From Escherichia coli (lineage in GTDB: Bacteria; Pseudomonadota; Gammaproteobacteria; Enterobacterales; Enterobacteriaceae): a DNA stretch of 64,000 nucleotides. The notes below the pieces were generated by a model. It did not search any database. It was given only the letters and a program-made list of their open reading frames with translations, and had not been told where the DNA came from. Below, piece by piece: positions 18,300 to 52,510 of this stretch (position 1 is the first letter of the stretch; each line of letters starts with the position of its first letter). The position numbers were made by a program, and so were the translations under genes. Location of the stretch: the NCBI RefSeq assembly GCF_050320075.1, contig NZ_CP190018.1; one strand, 5' to 3'.

Positions 18300-19238
18300 T
18301 TAGCGGCTCAACTGGCTAATCAGGGCAGGGACGACTTTGTAGATATCGCCCACCAGACCGTAGTCGGCATAGTTGAAGATTGGCGCATTTTTATCTTTAT
18401 TGATGGCGACAATCACTTTTGCGCCGTTGCCGCCAACCATATGCTGGATCTGCCCGGAGATCCCCAGCGTCAGGTAGAGATCGGATTTCAGCAACACGCC
18501 GGAGACACCGATATAACGTTCACGCTCCATCCAGTTCTCGCCTTCGGCAATTGGACGTGAACAGCCGACTTCAGCATTCAGCACCGCCGCCAGTTCGTGG
18601 ACCATTTTCAGGTCATCCTGCGCTGCCAGACCACGACCGACGCCAACCACACGTTTTGCTTTGCTCAGGTCCACGCTGCTTGCCGCTTTCGCACGGCGTT
18701 CGCGACAGAGAATTTCATGACGCGGGGCAACATAAGGTACCGTTTCTGTCGGGCACTGATGAGCGGTATCACTGGTGCACGGTTCCTGAACACCGGGTGC
18801 AAGGGTAATGATCGCCAGCGGGCTGTTGATCTTTTCCTGTGCGAACGCTAACCCGCCATACATCCGGTGTTCGGCGCAAATGTGACCATCGACAATATCC
18901 ACCGCAGTGGCATCGTTCACCAGCGCCGCATTCAGTTGCACACTTAACCGTGCTGCCAGAGCTTTACCGCGTTTCGTCGCGGCCAGCAGCAACATAGAAG
19001 GATGTTTATCTTTCAGCAGGGCAGCAATGCTTTCGGCGTAATTTTCAGTACGTTGCAGCGCATCATTTTGCTCAAGAACATAAATACATTTTGGACCATA
19101 AGGCATAACTGCCTGCGCCTGGTCGGTATTTTGTACAATGGCATACACCTGTTGGCCCCATTGCTGCGCGCCGCCAAACAGTTCAGCATAACGTTCAGGA
19201 TTATCGCTAAAGACCCAGACGCTGTTTAATTGACTCAT
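18300..19238 (-). CDS. ydiR: electron transfer flavoprotein alpha subunit (FixB family)
   Basis: 312-aa ORF. Confidence 0.88.
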   Translation of the reverse strand: MSQLNSVWVFSDNPERYAELFGGAQQWGQQVYAIVQNTDQAQAVMPYGPKCIYVLEQNDALQRTENYAESIAALLKDKHPSMLLLAATKRGKALAARLSVQLNAALVNDATAVDIVDGHICAEHRMYGGLAFAQEKINSPLAIITLAPGVQEPCTSDTAHQCPTETVPYVAPRHEILCRERRAKAASSVDLSKAKRVVGVGRGLAAQDDLKMVHELAAVLNAEVGCSRPIAEGENWMERERYIGVSGVLLKSDLYLTLGISGQIQHMVGGNGAKVIVAINKDKNAPIFNYADYGLVGDIYKVVPALISQLSR

Positions 19239-19257
19239 CGTTTCTTCTCCGTAGGCT

Positions 19258-20022
19258 TCAGTTCAGGGCTTTCTTCAGATATTCCGCCAGCTCGGCAATG
19301 GCCTCCGGCGAATCGTTATCGAGAATGATGTGCTTACGTTCTGTTTGCGGCGGTACGCGAATGCCGGTCAGCTCAGCAAGTGGCGCGCTCTGGCTCCAGC
19401 CAATGTCACTTGCCTGCCACTGATTTATCGGTTTTTTACCCGCGCCGAGAATGGCTTTCATCGAAGGAATGCGTGGCATGTTAATATCGGAGGTGACGCA
19501 GAGCACGGCTGGAACAGAGAGCTCAATAACTTCAACATCATCTTCAAGCGTGCGTTCAATCACCAGTGTATTGCCCTGACGCTGAATAGCACTCACTGCA
19601 TTAATCACCGGAAGTTGCAGAATTTCTCCGACCAGCAAGCCAACCTGCTGGGCATAAAGGTCACCGCAACCTTCACCAAAGATCAGTAAATCGAAGCCGA
19701 TCTTTTCAACTGCTGCCGCCAGTGCTTTTGCGGTATCGAGAGGCAGTGCATGTTCAAGTTGCGCATCCTGCACCAAATACAGGCTATGCGGCCCGCGGGA
19801 TAGCACGTCTTTGCGTACTTTCGAGTTCTGCAACAATGAGCCGCCAACGGTCAGCGCGGCTATCTCATCGTCATCTGTTGCAATCTGGCTTGCAGCTTCA
19901 ATGGCATTGAGATCGAACTGGCTGATTTTGGCGTCGGCATTGTCGAAATTCAGGGTATATTCTGGAGTGACAACAATGTCCTGTTCTTCAGGCACCAGCT
20001 TAAAGCAGGTTATTATTTTCAT
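19258..20022 (-). CDS. ydiQ: electron transfer flavoprotein beta subunit (FixA family)
   Basis: start at ATG 20022 (MKIITCFKLVPEEQD, 254 aa); ORF track extends upstream. Confidence 0.85.
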   Translation of the reverse strand: MKIITCFKLVPEEQDIVVTPEYTLNFDNADAKISQFDLNAIEAASQIATDDDEIAALTVGGSLLQNSKVRKDVLSRGPHSLYLVQDAQLEHALPLDTAKALAAAVEKIGFDLLIFGEGCGDLYAQQVGLLVGEILQLPVINAVSAIQRQGNTLVIERTLEDDVEVIELSVPAVLCVTSDINMPRIPSMKAILGAGKKPINQWQASDIGWSQSAPLAELTGIRVPPQTERKHIILDNDSPEAIAELAEYLKKALN

Positions 20023-48627: not shown

Positions 48628-49296
48628 ATGTCCTTCACTCGACGCAAATTTGTTCTGGGGATGGGAACAGTAATCTTTTTTACTGGTTCTGCGTCTTCTC
48701 TGTTAGCGAACACGAGGCAAGAAAAGAAAGTTCGGTATGCCATGATTCATGACGAGTCACGGTGCAATGGCTGTAATATTTGCGCCCGCGCATGCCGTAA
48801 AACTAACCACGTCCCCGCTCAGGGAAGCCGTTTATCGATAGCACACATTCCAGTCACCGATAACGACAACGAAACGCAGTATCACTATTTTCGCCAGTCA
48901 TGCCAGCACTGTGAAGATGCTCCTTGCATCGACGTATGCCCGACAGGGGCGTCGTGGCGTGATGAGCAGGGGATCGTGCGGGTAGAAAAATCGCAGTGCA
49001 TCGGCTGCAGTTATTGCATTGGCGCTTGTCCTTACCAGGTTCGCTACCTTAACCCTGTCACTAAAGTGGCAGATAAATGTGATTTCTGCGCTGAGTCCCG
49101 ACTGGCAAAAGGCTTTCCGCCCATTTGCGTCAGCGCCTGTCCGGAACACGCATTGATCTTTGGTCGCGAAGATAGCCCAGAAATTCAGGCGTGGTTGCAG
49201 GAAAATAAATACTATCAATATCAGCTACCTGGTGCCGGGAAACCGCACCTGTATCGCCGGTTCGGTCAACATTTGATTAAAAAGGAAAATGTATGA
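48628..49296 (+). CDS. ydhX: Tat-signal 4Fe-4S ferredoxin-like protein
   Basis: start at ATG 48628 (MSFTRRKFVLG twin-arginine motif, 222 aa); four Cys clusters. Confidence 0.85.
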   Translation: MSFTRRKFVLGMGTVIFFTGSASSLLANTRQEKKVRYAMIHDESRCNGCNICARACRKTNHVPAQGSRLSIAHIPVTDNDNETQYHYFRQSCQHCEDAPCIDVCPTGASWRDEQGIVRVEKSQCIGCSYCIGACPYQVRYLNPVTKVADKCDFCAESRLAKGFPPICVSACPEHALIFGREDSPEIQAWLQENKYYQYQLPGAGKPHLYRRFGQHLIKKENV

Positions 49297-50078
49297 ACCC
49301 GTCGCAACATGCTGAACAGTTTCAGAGCCAGTTGGCGAACTATGTGCCACAGTTCACTCCCCAATTTTGGCCGGTGTGGTTGATCATTGCCGGACTATTG
49401 CTGGTAGGGATGTGGTTTGTGCTGGGGCTGCATGCCTTGCTTCGTGCTCGTGGCGTGAAGAAATCAGCCACCGACCATGGTGAGAAGGTTTATCTTTACA
49501 GCAAAGCGGTCAGATTATGGCACTGGTCGAATGCGTTACTCTTTGTATTGTTGCTGGCAAGTGGGCTGATAAATCACTTTGCGCTGGTGGGCGCAACTGC
49601 GGTTAAAAGTCTGGTTGCGGTGCATGAAGTTTGCGGATTTTTGTTACTGGCATGTTGGCTCGGCTTTGTTCTGATCAATGCCGTTGGGGGTAATGGTCAC
49701 CATTATCGCATTCGTCGTCAGGGGTGGCTGGAGCGAGCGGCAAAACAAACGCGATTCTATTTGTTTGGCATTATGCAGGGGGAAGAACATCCTTTCCCGG
49801 CAACAACACAGTCTAAATTTAATCCCTTACAGCAGGTTGCCTATATTGGTGTCATGTATGGATTGCTGCCGTTGTTACTATTGACGGGGCTGCTGTGTCT
49901 CTATCCGCAAGCCGTGGGAGATGTGTTTCCTGGCGTAAGATACTGGTTATTGCAGGCGCATTTTGCTCTGGCATTTATAAGCCTCTTTTTTATCTTCGGT
50001 CATCTTTATCTTTGCACCACGGGGCGTACGCCACACGAAACCTTTAAAAGCATGGTCGATGGCTATCACCGGCACTAA
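49293..50078 (+). CDS. ydhU: membrane cytochrome b-like subunit (PhsC/NrfD-like)
   Basis: 261-aa polytopic membrane ORF, ATGA overlap with ydhX. Confidence 0.85.
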   Translation: MNPSQHAEQFQSQLANYVPQFTPQFWPVWLIIAGLLLVGMWFVLGLHALLRARGVKKSATDHGEKVYLYSKAVRLWHWSNALLFVLLLASGLINHFALVGATAVKSLVAVHEVCGFLLLACWLGFVLINAVGGNGHHYRIRRQGWLERAAKQTRFYLFGIMQGEEHPFPATTQSKFNPLQQVAYIGVMYGLLPLLLLTGLLCLYPQAVGDVFPGVRYWLLQAHFALAFISLFFIFGHLYLCTTGRTPHETFKSMVDGYHRH

Positions 50079-50081
50079 CGA

Positions 50082-50894
50082 ATGATCATTACACGAGCAG
50101 ACCTGCGAGAATGGCGTATCGGAGCGGTGATGTATCGCTGGTTCCTGCGCCATTTCCCACGCGGCGGTAGTTATGCCGATATTCATCATGCACTGATTGA
50201 GGAAGGATATACGGACTGGGCGGAGAGTCTGGTTGAGTATGCGTGGAAAAAATGGCTGGCGGATGAAAACTTCGCGCATCAGGAAGTTTCCTCTATGCAA
50301 AAATTGGCCACAGATCCCGGAGAGAGACCATTTTGCAGTCAGTTTGCCCGCAGCGACGATCATGCTCGCATCGGCTGTTGTGAGGATAATGCCAGAATCG
50401 CAACCGCTGGGTATGCCGCGCAAATTGCCAGTATGGGTTATAGCGTGCGGATTGGAAGTGTCGGCTTTAACAGTCACATTGGCAGCTCCGGTGAACGCGC
50501 ACGGGTTGCTGTAACCGGTAATTCTTCGCGGATAAGCAGCGCTGGAGATAGTAGTCGGATTGCGAATACCGGAATGCGAGTACGCGTTTGTACATTGGGT
50601 GAACGGTGTCATGTCGCCAGTAATGGTGACCTGGTGCAAATCGCCAGCTTTGGCGCAAACGCCAGAATTGCCAACAGCGGCGACAATGTACACATCATTG
50701 CCAGCGGTGAAGATTCAACAATAGTGAGCACGGGCGTGGTCGACTCAATTATTCTCGGGCCAGGGGGAAGCGCCGCACTGGCATATCATGACGGCGAAAG
50801 AGTTCGCTTCGCCGTCGCCATTGAAGGTGAAAACAATATTCGAGCCGGAGTCCGCTATCGTCTTAATGAACAGCATCAGTTTGTTGAGTGCTGA
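50082..50894 (+). CDS. ydhT: uncharacterised protein YdhT with about 15 tandem 9-residue repeats
   Basis: 270-aa ORF; residues about 93-228 form repeats of pattern x-x-R-I-A-x-x-G-x. Confidence 0.85.
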   Translation: MIITRADLREWRIGAVMYRWFLRHFPRGGSYADIHHALIEEGYTDWAESLVEYAWKKWLADENFAHQEVSSMQKLATDPGERPFCSQFARSDDHARIGCCEDNARIATAGYAAQIASMGYSVRIGSVGFNSHIGSSGERARVAVTGNSSRISSAGDSSRIANTGMRVRVCTLGERCHVASNGDLVQIASFGANARIANSGDNVHIIASGEDSTIVSTGVVDSIILGPGGSAALAYHDGERVRFAVAIEGENNIRAGVRYRLNEQHQFVEC

Positions 50895-50905
50895 TAGCTT
50901 TACCT

Positions 50906-52510
50906 TTAATCAAACGAAAGACGCCTACGTGCACGGGAGGCAGGTTTTACGACAGCCCGAGCCATCGCCTCACCAATTTCTGCACATGCCGTAAGTCCCT
51001 GAACGAAAGGCTGGTCGTGCATTAACCAGGGCAACGCGCCGAACGCTACGCGCCCACGAATATCTTCGGGTTGCTGTAACGTATAATCTTCGCCAACATC
51101 AGGGTTTTTATCCCCTGTTTTCTGTAATTGTTCGCGTAGTCCAGGGAAAGGAATATCTTTCACTTTAAGCGGACGCTGCCCACGGGCATCAATAAAAACG
51201 TCAAACGAGTAGCTGTTGTCTTCCGTTTTCAGGACGGTGCGCGACTCATTAATTTCCATTTCGTAGTCTTCACCGAGGGCGAGAATATGAATGATTCCCG
51301 CTTCACGTAAGGCCAGTAGTCGACGAATAGACTCTGAAGGGATTGCCGCATAATTATCGATGAAAACCCGGGCAAGGCCTTTACTGAACCGTTTATGGTC
51401 GTGTTCATTCAGATGTGGAACAATTTCCTGTACTGCTTCATGCAGGCGCAGAATGACATAACGCCAGGGAACAGTATGTTTTTCTCGTTTATTGCGTTCG
51501 ACTTCCTGGAGATTTTTTTCTGCCCAGTCAAATGGGTCGCGTTGTTTGCGCTCGGCAAACCAGGCTTGAGCAAAGGAATCGACATTCAGGCTCTCTAAGG
51601 CTATGCGTTGGCTCCAGCCTGGATCAGCAAACTTGATTTCCTCTACTATCAATCTAAATACCCGATCCAAAAGGCCATATTCGCCTTTTTGAATCTCAGC
51701 ATTTAATGCTTGATCAGTGACGATGTGTAAGGGCTCGTAGGGAATAGGGCAATAGAAATCGGCTTCGGGTAAAATACCCGTGCGCGACATTAACGTAATA
51801 TTTAGCTTTTCACTTGCGTTATCGCGGTGAAAAATGACGTGTTGTTTATCATCTTCAATGAACGAACCATGCTGAATAGCCACTGCCATTGCCGCATCCA
51901 GTCCGCTCAAGGATGTTCCCATAATACCCACGTTACACGCATCGACCTTTGCTTCCATCAGGCCTGACCACGGGCTGGGAAAGTACGTTCTGGTTGCTTC
52001 TTCTTCATCAGGCCAGACGTGACCCGTGGCAATCACCGCTAAATCAAACGTCTCGCTGGGTAAATCCTGATTTGTAGCGAGCATGACGCCAGCATTTGTA
52101 ATTTGCAGATCGGTAACCTGGCATGATTCATAAACAGCCACCGCAAATTTTTGCTGTCGTGCCTGGTCTACTAATCGTAAAAATTGATCGCGGAAATATT
52201 CGCCCAGCAGAATTCGCGGTAAAAACTGACGATCGTGCAAGGTTTCTTTTTTAACGCCATAACGCTGGAGATGGCTGGCTTCTTGCTTTTGTAGCCATTC
52301 GAGATACGTACAATAAATCGGCGGTATTTCAATACTGGCAATATTTGCCAGCATCAGTTTTGAGTTTTCCTCATCACTGTATGGCATCCCGACACCGGCT
52401 TCGTCAGCCTGCTCGAAGATAGAAATAGAAAGTGGAGTTTGTTGCTGTAGAAGCGAGAATAAGGTGTAGATCCCCGTAGGCCCGGCACCCACAATAGCAA
52501 TTTTTTTCAT
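50906..52510 (-). CDS. ydhS: FAD/NAD(P)-binding protein
   Basis: 534-aa ORF with N-terminal GAGPTG dinucleotide-binding motif. Confidence 0.85.
   Translation of the reverse strand: MKKIAIVGAGPTGIYTLFSLLQQQTPLSISIFEQADEAGVGMPYSDEENSKLMLANIASIEIPPIYCTYLEWLQKQEASHLQRYGVKKETLHDRQFLPRILLGEYFRDQFLRLVDQARQQKFAVAVYESCQVTDLQITNAGVMLATNQDLPSETFDLAVIATGHVWPDEEEATRTYFPSPWSGLMEAKVDACNVGIMGTSLSGLDAAMAVAIQHGSFIEDDKQHVIFHRDNASEKLNITLMSRTGILPEADFYCPIPYEPLHIVTDQALNAEIQKGEYGLLDRVFRLIVEEIKFADPGWSQRIALESLNVDSFAQAWFAERKQRDPFDWAEKNLQEVERNKREKHTVPWRYVILRLHEAVQEIVPHLNEHDHKRFSKGLARVFIDNYAAIPSESIRRLLALREAGIIHILALGEDYEMEINESRTVLKTEDNSYSFDVFIDARGQRPLKVKDIPFPGLREQLQKTGDKNPDVGEDYTLQQPEDIRGRVAFGALPWLMHDQPFVQGLTACAEIGEAMARAVVKPASRARRRLSFD

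Follow-up and report, generated by a model that had tools for sequence, protein, structure and literature searches.

The RTX proteins, which carry a nonapeptide beta-roll, are defined by Gly- and Asp-rich repeats that bind Ca2+ and by export through a type I secretion system (PMC3034196). The pentapeptide-repeat proteins, including Qnr and MfpA, are likewise built from a short periodic unit and form cytoplasmic beta-helix rods that act through their shape and surface. Here we analyzed YdhT, a periodic protein encoded in a 64,000-nucleotide stretch of Escherichia coli DNA (NCBI RefSeq assembly GCF_050320075.1, contig NZ_CP190018.1; hereafter, the window). Its gene, ydhT (50082..50894, + strand; 270 a.a. 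and a stop codon), was already known and annotated, and the N-terminal domain of the protein is already in Pfam. The gene belongs to the ydhYVWXUT operon, which is regulated by FNR (PMC10845959); the papers on this operon describe its regulation and give no function for YdhT, a conserved E. coli protein without a function in an oxidoreductase system (class V WOR/AFOR) of unknown physiological role. The literature that we searched contained no account of the YdhT repeat, its fold or the phage family to which it is related. The best explanation as a whole, to which we assign a probability of roughly 0.6, is that the repeats form a beta-solenoid rod, that the array encoding them is frozen in E. 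coli, and that the protein is an accessory factor recruited from a phage family. This explanation builds on the periodicity of the protein, the decay of the repeat at the DNA level, the invariance of the array in E. coli, the operon linkage, the homology to phage proteins and the purifying selection on the gene, all of which were observed.

The initial annotation of the window had described a strict 9-residue periodicity in the YdhT translation, and the translation it quoted matches the open reading frame (ORF). The autocorrelation of a.a. 91-235, scored with BLOSUM62 against 1000 shuffles, confirmed the period, with z-scores of 11.7, 9.9, 9.7, 9.2 and 8.5 at lags of 9, 18, 27, 36 and 45, respectively, and at most 0.9 at the other lags. 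The array comprises 15-16 units over a.a. ~85-228, depending on whether the register is opened at a.a. 85 (CSQFARSDD) or a.a. 94 (HARIGCCED, nucleotide 50361), and closes at a.a. 228 with VDSIILGPG, which ends at nucleotide 50765. These two N-terminal units and the C-terminal one are degenerate, and 13 units (a.a. 103-219; 50388-50738, + strand) follow the pattern [hydrophobic]-x3-G strictly. The units have the consensus x-[A/S/V]-[R/H/Q]-[I/V]-[A/G/S]-[S/T/N]-x-G-x, or, in a broader form, x-[A/S/V]-[R/H/Q/K]-[I/L/V]-[A/G/S]-S-x-G-x; in the 13 strict units, Gly at position 8 and Ile/Val at position 4 are both found in 100% of the cases. The same consensus is shared by these 13 E. coli units, 226 units from orthologues and 1600 units from distant relatives. 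Moreover, the 1600 units, from ~130 distant relatives, chain in exact multiples of 9 residues, which provides an independent argument for a structural constraint. In the Pfam versions used, no family covers the repeat region, and a Pfam scan of YdhT gave nothing better than an E-value of 0.09.

We predicted the structure of YdhT with AlphaFold2 (AF2), using an alignment of 17 orthologues. The mean predicted local distance difference test (pLDDT) score was 85.4, with values of 86-97 over the repeats. The model consists of a five-helix N-terminal domain (a.a. 5-76), a low-confidence linker, an array of strands and a small beta domain. In the array, fifteen strands are placed exactly 9 residues apart, from a.a. 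87 to a.a. 216, each spanning 4 residues except the fourteenth, which spans 5, and further strands follow at a.a. 220-225, 230-236, 241-247, 258-261 and 267-269. The modeled array thus has the stacked short parallel strands with a regular period that characterize the beta-solenoid class, in agreement with the solenoid or beta-helix-like fold proposed in the initial annotation, and we consider it very probable that the array (16 in-register units, a.a. 85-228; 50334..50765, + strand) folds as a beta-solenoid. Two units most likely correspond to one 18-residue coil. Each unit would then contribute one 4-residue strand and one 5-residue Ser/Gly turn, and the ~15 stacked strands, with two units per coil as in an RTX beta-roll lacking the calcium site, would form a rigid rod of ~35 Å between the N-terminal helical domain and the small, highly conserved beta domain at the C-terminus. 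Positions 2 and 4, with their small and hydrophobic residues, would face the core, the invariant Gly at position 8 would lie in the turn, and the Arg/His/Gln/Lys side chains at position 3 would form solvent-exposed ladders on both sheets. The net charge of the solenoid is ~0 (12 D + E versus 12 K + R), and DNA mimicry by YdhT was rejected on this ground.

The N-terminal helical domain (a.a. 1-76; 50082..50309, + strand) is assigned to Pfam PF27195 (YdhT_N) through a precomputed label carried by the cluster representative P0001, which is 98% identical to YdhT, and by all of the orthologues. Its predicted helices span a.a. 5-10, 15-24, 31-41, 44-60 and 63-76, and residues L8, R19, W20, R23, F25, P26, G28 and G29 are invariant in the orthologue alignment. 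The following linker (a.a. 77-84; 50310..50333, + strand) varies in length among the orthologues, and pLDDT falls below 50 at a.a. 71-75 and 77-83. The C-terminal beta domain, or cap (a.a. 229-270; 50766..50891, + strand), delimited by the AF2 strands, the invariant residues and the matches to phage protein families, is the most conserved part of YdhT across the wider family; in this region, G228, G229, A231, Y235, D237, G238, R240, R242, F243, E248, G249 and E250 are invariant in the orthologue alignment.

The initial annotation had described the array as 27-bp tandem repeats. This description applies to the 9-residue period of the protein, but not to a recognizable tandem repeat in the DNA. 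Tandem Repeats Finder (TRF), run on the window with a minimum score of 30, reported no period-27 array in ydhT, only a chance 14-bp pair. The DNA identity at lag 27 was weak (0.447, versus 0.23-0.31 at other lags), and the units share a mean nucleotide identity of 42% in register versus 24-30% out of register. By codon position, the in-register identity was 52% at the first, 45% at the second and 28%, the random level, at the third position, and the longest exact direct repeat in the array is 8 bp. The random third positions, the 42% unit identity and the 8-bp maximum repeat together indicate that the periodicity is held by selection on the protein. Neither slipped-strand mispairing nor homologous unequal recombination finds a substrate in the array.

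It had also been suggested that the repeat number might vary between strains, which was not borne out in E. coli. The ydhT gene is present in 5417 of 5426 complete E. coli genomes, in 5412 of which ≥80% of the gene is covered at a single location, and all 39 records drawn at even intervals from the ranking have a span of exactly 813 bp. We tiled the array with three 135-bp queries against these genomes. Units 6-10 and units 11-15 were each found at ≥80% coverage in all 5417 genomes (weakest matches, 98% and 97%), and units 1-5 in 5414 of the 5417 (weakest match, 65%). Both of the disrupted cases that we looked at, among the three, are natural knock-outs: in E. coli KFu023 (L002, 1412-3449), an IS3-family element (ISSen4) is inserted at nucleotide ~369 of ydhT, and in E. 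coli O157:H7 TT12A (L022, 1446-1988), a deletion of ~1.8 kb that removes ydhU has joined the 5′ end of ydhX with the 3′ part of ydhT. No change in unit number was detected among the 5417 complete genomes. In a collection of 5.8 billion proteins, the 270-a.a. form has 6294 member sequences, and four in-frame internal deletion alleles of the E. coli type, lacking 72 a.a. (8 units), 90 a.a. (10 units), 30 a.a. and 82 a.a., occur as singletons from metagenome data or sequence databases; a fifth allele, lacking 45 a.a. (5 units), belongs to a more distant orthologue. Since the DNA similarity of the units is gone, the unit number is genetically stable in E. coli. Between genera, the operon-type orthologues have 13-17 units, and the wider family ranges from ~5 to 36.

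Searching 1.84 billion cluster representatives with a HMMER profile of the orthologues yielded 1188 clusters at E ≤ 1e-3, including 495 at E ≤ 1e-10. Next after the operon-type orthologues were proteins with the same three-part architecture on phage contigs; for phage proteins in general, the profile gave E-values down to 1e-58. One of the genes for the three-part proteins (P0058) is flanked by a polynucleotide kinase-phosphatase (PNKP) gene and by small genes located upstream of the terminase, and another (P0062) adjoins a cI-like helix-turn-helix (HTH) gene and a DNA methylase. In Edwardsiella phage GF-2, gp55 (L007, 6001-7047) is a full-length YdhT homologue with 33% identity, encoded directly after an N-like antiterminator, and in Komagataeibacter phage phiKX1, a gene with the YdhT architecture directly follows the antirepressor. 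In more distant relatives, the array and the C-terminal domain are retained, and the N-terminus is replaced by DUF7666, a DarG-like macro domain with DUF7666, a PcfJ-like domain or the A1S_2505 "phage non-structural" domain; a Pfam scan of ten N-terminal domains gave no match. These more distant relatives belong to phrog_4433 and phrog_27197, for which no function is known. YdhT a.a. 100-270 matched residues 154-310 of the 312-residue phrog_4433 model (E 1.7e-6), leaving the N-terminal DUF7666 part of the model unmatched. A Foldseek search of the BFVD database found 14 phage proteins at E ≤ 1e-3, all uncharacterized. No paper on DUF7666, phrog_4433, YdhT_N (PF27195) or YdhT-like proteins was found in our literature searches.

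The variable 27-bp array, absent from E. coli ydhT, does exist in the phage branch of the family. Viral contigs were scanned with patterns from the orthologue alignment, which were specific for the operon type and gave 4 loci, and with exact 27-mers, which gave 4 more, many of them broken off at a contig end within the array. In 10 of the 11 distinct phage loci, TRF reported genuine 27-bp arrays (7-22 copies, 89-96% matches), including 20.9 copies in GF-2 gp55; the exception is the pair L004/L005, whose array is degenerate (66-74%). Among the chromosomal operon-linked genes, TRF found no array in E. coli, Edwardsiella, Jinshanibacter or one metagenomic lineage (L010), and 2.4 copies at 67% in another (L012). 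Three viral contigs from IMG/VR (L015, L018 and L020) end inside the 27-bp array, indicating that short-read assemblies break at these repeats, and the copy numbers of metagenomic phages are lower bounds. In an evolution experiment with Serratia symbiotica, a 54-bp (two-unit) deletion arose in "ydhT_1" at position 782,372, which lies inside a mitomycin-inducible prophage of 48 kb starting at 771,733 (PMC12505973).

Several members of the wider family have further domains. The metagenomic proteins P0068 and P0103 (546 and 490 a.a.) combine a DarG-like macro domain, DUF7666, YdhT-type repeats and the C-terminal domain; P0068 matches the DarG antitoxin model (E 1e-20), and P0103, which was not scanned, was assigned from its similar N-terminal sequence. 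They are candidate phage counter-defense proteins against DNA ADP-ribosylation by DarT. Three others, P0073 and P0178 (743 and 647 a.a.) and P0184 (3263 a.a.), have collagen-like Gly-X-Y N-termini or giant size together with 14-36 YdhT-type units (consensus ...A-x-I-[ST]-T-x-G...), and may be phage fiber-like proteins that use the YdhT-type solenoid unit.

In the window, the gene order ydhY-ydhV-ydhW-ydhX-ydhU(phsC)-ydhT is that of K-12, with ydhT in the last place. In five divergent lineages (39-100% identity), in which the flanking genes all differ, the gene closes ydhY-V-W-X-(U) at its 3′ end, and the start and stop codons abut or overlap. In the Edwardsiella operon, which lacks ydhU, and in those of Jinshanibacter and two metagenomic lineages (39-45% identity), the genes preceding ydhT are ydhY-AFOR-ydhW-ydhX-(cytochrome b), and the neighbors downstream all differ. 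The Edwardsiella tarda operon (CP100802.1; L003, 3690-8954), where ydhT (317 a.a., ~15 units) comes directly after ydhX, adjoins a nap nitrate-reductase cluster. Within E. coli, ydhT is under purifying selection, with a ratio of nonsynonymous to synonymous substitution rates (omega) of ~0.2 (range, 0.15-0.23); the corresponding values were 0.10-0.27 for ydhW, ydhX and ydhU, and 0.01-0.02 for ydhV. A scan of YdhT against PADLOC-DB detected no anti-phage defense family at E ≤ 0.01.

These observations can be joined as follows. The array in ydhT would be an old, "frozen" descendant of the 27-bp DNA arrays that the phage homologues still carry, in which selection retains the protein pattern in E. 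coli while the DNA similarity has vanished. YdhT, as a cytoplasmic product of the FNR-controlled operon, would serve as a fixed-length scaffold or accessory factor of the AFOR/WOR-type oxidoreductase system, having been recruited from a family of phage non-structural proteins in which the same stalk bears interchangeable N-terminal domains. For the accessory role in the Ydh system, which is suggested by the operon linkage, we regard the chances as even, and the phage origin of ydhT seems to us an equally balanced proposition. A broader reading, which we put forward tentatively and think somewhat doubtful, is that the repeat represents a calcium-free nonapeptide beta-roll new to the literature searched, which serves as a stalk in more than 1000 clusters of phage non-structural proteins and persists as a frozen copy in Enterobacterales. 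A length-tunable stalk with its C-terminal cap would then present effector domains (DUF7666, the DarG-like macro domain, PcfJ or YdhT_N), and the phages would tune the unit number via recombination-prone 27-bp arrays; one copy, captured by Enterobacterales, would have been fixed in length and turned into a constant part of an anaerobic AFOR/WOR-type oxidoreductase operon.

Several points weigh against the rod-shaped accessory factor of phage descent. Neither the YdhT sequence nor the profile had a significant sequence match in the PDB, and no family member has an experimental structure. The Foldseek search of the YdhT model against the PDB was uninformative, with a best E-value of 0.13 (a CAP/CARP beta-helix) and none below 0.1. 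AF2 has a tendency to model any regular repeat as a solenoid, and its input alignment comprised just 17 sequences. The phage-to-chromosome direction of transfer and the link between YdhT and the Ydh enzyme are both putative, and a 2026 review states that the function of this enzyme class is not known (PMC13328260). In addition, descent from a phage would be just as good an argument for a phage-related function. In that case, YdhT would be unrelated to the Ydh oxidoreductase, and ydhT a domesticated or hitch-hiking phage gene that merely uses the operon promoter, with a role such as exclusion, counter-defense or host takeover. This would suit both the closest non-orthologous relatives, which are phage non-structural proteins from early or lysogeny-control regions, and the relatives fused to the DarG-like macro and A1S_2505 domains; a machine-learning study picked ydhT as a predictor of susceptibility to one phage (PMC12579225). 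However, the constant 3′-end position amid differing flanks in five lineages with abutting or overlapping codons, an omega equal to those of the neighboring subunits, and the lack of a PADLOC match make a phage-related role unlikely.

Other explanations concern the array itself. A contingency locus, in which a slippage-prone 27-bp repeat generates length variants between E. coli strains, would be in line with the near-identical arrays of the phage homologues, the prophage copy that lost 54 bp in the laboratory and the singleton E. coli-type alleles lacking 72 or 90 a.a.; nevertheless, it is largely refuted and has almost no chance of being correct, as the longest exact repeat is 8 bp and no TRF array exists, 0/5417 complete genomes show a change in unit number, and 2 of the 4 singleton deletions (30 and 82 a.a.) are not multiples of 9 a.a. 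YdhT might instead be the unit of a self-associating, curli-like or bactofilin-like polymer, with filaments formed by end-to-end or edge stacking; this is improbable, since conserved globular domains cap both ends of the array, neither Curlin_rpt nor Bactofilin matched in Pfam at E ≤ 1, and the N-terminus, by eye, has no signal-peptide-like stretch, pointing to a cytoplasmic protein. A calcium-binding beta-roll of the RTX type is very improbable, given that each unit has one Gly instead of GGxGxD and no conserved Asp, HemolysinCabind (PF00353) did not match at E ≤ 1, and the operon is a cytoplasmic context without type I secretion genes. Finally, GF-2 gp55 is annotated as a "putative collagen-like protein", and relatives weakly match the Pfam Collagen and Scl collagen-like adhesin models, raising the idea of a collagen-like or low-complexity disordered segment. 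YdhT itself had no Pfam Collagen match, and the matches of the relatives stayed below the curated cut-offs save for P0062 (30.6 versus 27.2 bits), where no single stretch passed. Gly recurs every 9, not every 3, residues, the single Pro lies in the last and most degenerate unit, and the hydrophobic and polar residues alternate in a strand pattern with invariant Ile/Val/Leu, modeled as beta strands at pLDDT > 86. We attribute the weak matches and the gp55 label to the regular Gly; the label looks like a mis-annotation, and a collagen-like or disordered array is hardly credible.

The initial annotation had also noted a long antisense ORF (248 a.a.; 49947..50693, − strand), considered it spurious and ascribed its openness to the repeat. 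The first part of this assessment stands and the second does not. The frame is the exact reverse complement of the sense codons, and so it can be closed solely by sense TTA, CTA or TCA codons. The first 211 codons of ydhT contain none of them, versus ~4.5 expected from the local codon usage (P ~0.01). The orthologues have 3-16 such codons at non-conserved sites, and phage GF-2 has TCA in every unit; the antisense frame is thus closed in Edwardsiella, Jinshanibacter, L010, L012 and the phage homologues. Since it is not conserved in homologues, the ORF is spurious, and its openness reflects the serine and leucine codon choice in E. coli ydhT, not a property of the repeat.

The assignment of the gene rests on the ORF list, the K-12 annotation (98.9% DNA identity to the annotated K-12 ydhT), omega and the NCBIfam equivalog NF007410, "protein YdhT" (490.5 bits against a cut-off of 300, E 1.3e-147; a.a. 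2-270 versus model positions 1-269). Upstream, ydhU (49293..50078, + strand), encoding a phsC-type cytochrome b subunit, has its stop 3 nt before the ydhT ATG. Downstream lies the convergent ydhS (50906..52510, − strand), with 11 bp between both stop codons; the ydhT-ydhS gap (50892-50908) is too short for separate terminators, and the two genes are among the E. coli transcriptional-overlap ("excludon") pairs (PMC12288877). A GGAG Shine-Dalgarno-like motif (window 50115-50132) is located 5 nt upstream of the internal Met17 ATG, its first base 9 nt before the ATG, and several gene callers take Met17 as the start (253-254-a.a. clusters P0002, with 467 members, and P0005). As residues 1-16 are kept in the orthologues and the phage homologues, Met1 is the likelier start. 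The N-terminus of YdhT, read by eye without a predictor, contains neither a signal-peptide-like hydrophobic stretch nor a twin-arginine motif, which argues for a cytoplasmic protein; a Tat signal was rejected for the lack of this motif, and Fe-S or metal binding via Cys was rejected, as no Cys is invariant in the orthologue alignment.

Frameshift alleles also occur. The cluster P0006 (169 member sequences) represents a 287-a.a. variant in which the frame is lost near codon 235; its tail (...MTAKEFASPSPLKV...) reads through an overlapping +1 frame ORF (window 50788-50994, 68 a.a.) across the 3′ end of ydhS, and it is a lineage-specific allele without the conserved C-terminal domain. A second frameshift, after a.a. 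183, leads to the truncated clusters P0028 and P0029 (197 a.a.; 56 and 46 members). The unannotated 23-kb GenBank record CP025887.1, "Escherichia phage 503046", contains ydhT at 98.5% protein identity (18751-19560), and is probably chromosomal E. coli DNA, either mislabeled or a transduced fragment, rather than a source of a phage gene.

The three-part architecture turns a hypothetical protein into a testable one, with regard to binding to the Ydh subunits, the length of the rod and the Arg/His/Gln ladder as a binding surface. Set side by side, the frozen chromosomal array and the live 27-bp arrays of the phages neatly illustrate the aging of a tandem repeat once it has been domesticated. Our results also correct two misleading annotations, namely the "collagen-like" label given to the protein of GF-2 and the view of YdhT as a redox "subunit".

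Compared with the known systems, YdhT shares its nonapeptide period (lag-9 z = 11.7) with the RTX beta-roll, as represented by HemolysinCabind, the CyaA blocks and alkaline protease, and CyaA was the sole PDB sequence touched by the YdhT profile, at a non-significant E-value of 0.12. Unlike RTX, YdhT has one Gly per unit and lacks the GGxGxDxUx motif and the Ca2+-binding Asp, and thus has no Ca2+ site; type I secretion is absent at ydhT, whose neighbors are genes for redox subunits and ydhS, with no ABC, MFP or TolC genes. Qnr and MfpA differ in their period of 5, in their four-sided helix, each coil of which takes 20 residues, and in their acidic surface, which mimics DNA, and no homology to YdhT was found. 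The uninterrupted Gly-X-Y triplets and the Pro-richness of the collagen triple helix are absent from YdhT. The two-sheet beta-solenoids of MpAFP region IV (3p4g) and curli CsgA (8c50, 8enq) have coils of 19-23 residues and are both extracellular, MpAFP being Ca2+-bound and CsgA forming amyloid polymers, and their 8-10% sequence identity to YdhT is no evidence of homology. In contrast, the phage proteins of phrog_4433 and phrog_27197 are homologous to YdhT over the array and the C-terminal domain, with the same unit consensus; they differ in their mostly other N-termini (DUF7666 = PF24703, DarG-like macro, PcfJ), in their near-identical 27-bp arrays of 7-22 or more copies, and in the location of their genes, which lie in early or accessory regions of phages rather than in a redox operon. 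We would place the YdhT repeat among the nonapeptide beta-rolls or solenoids, as a calcium-free form.

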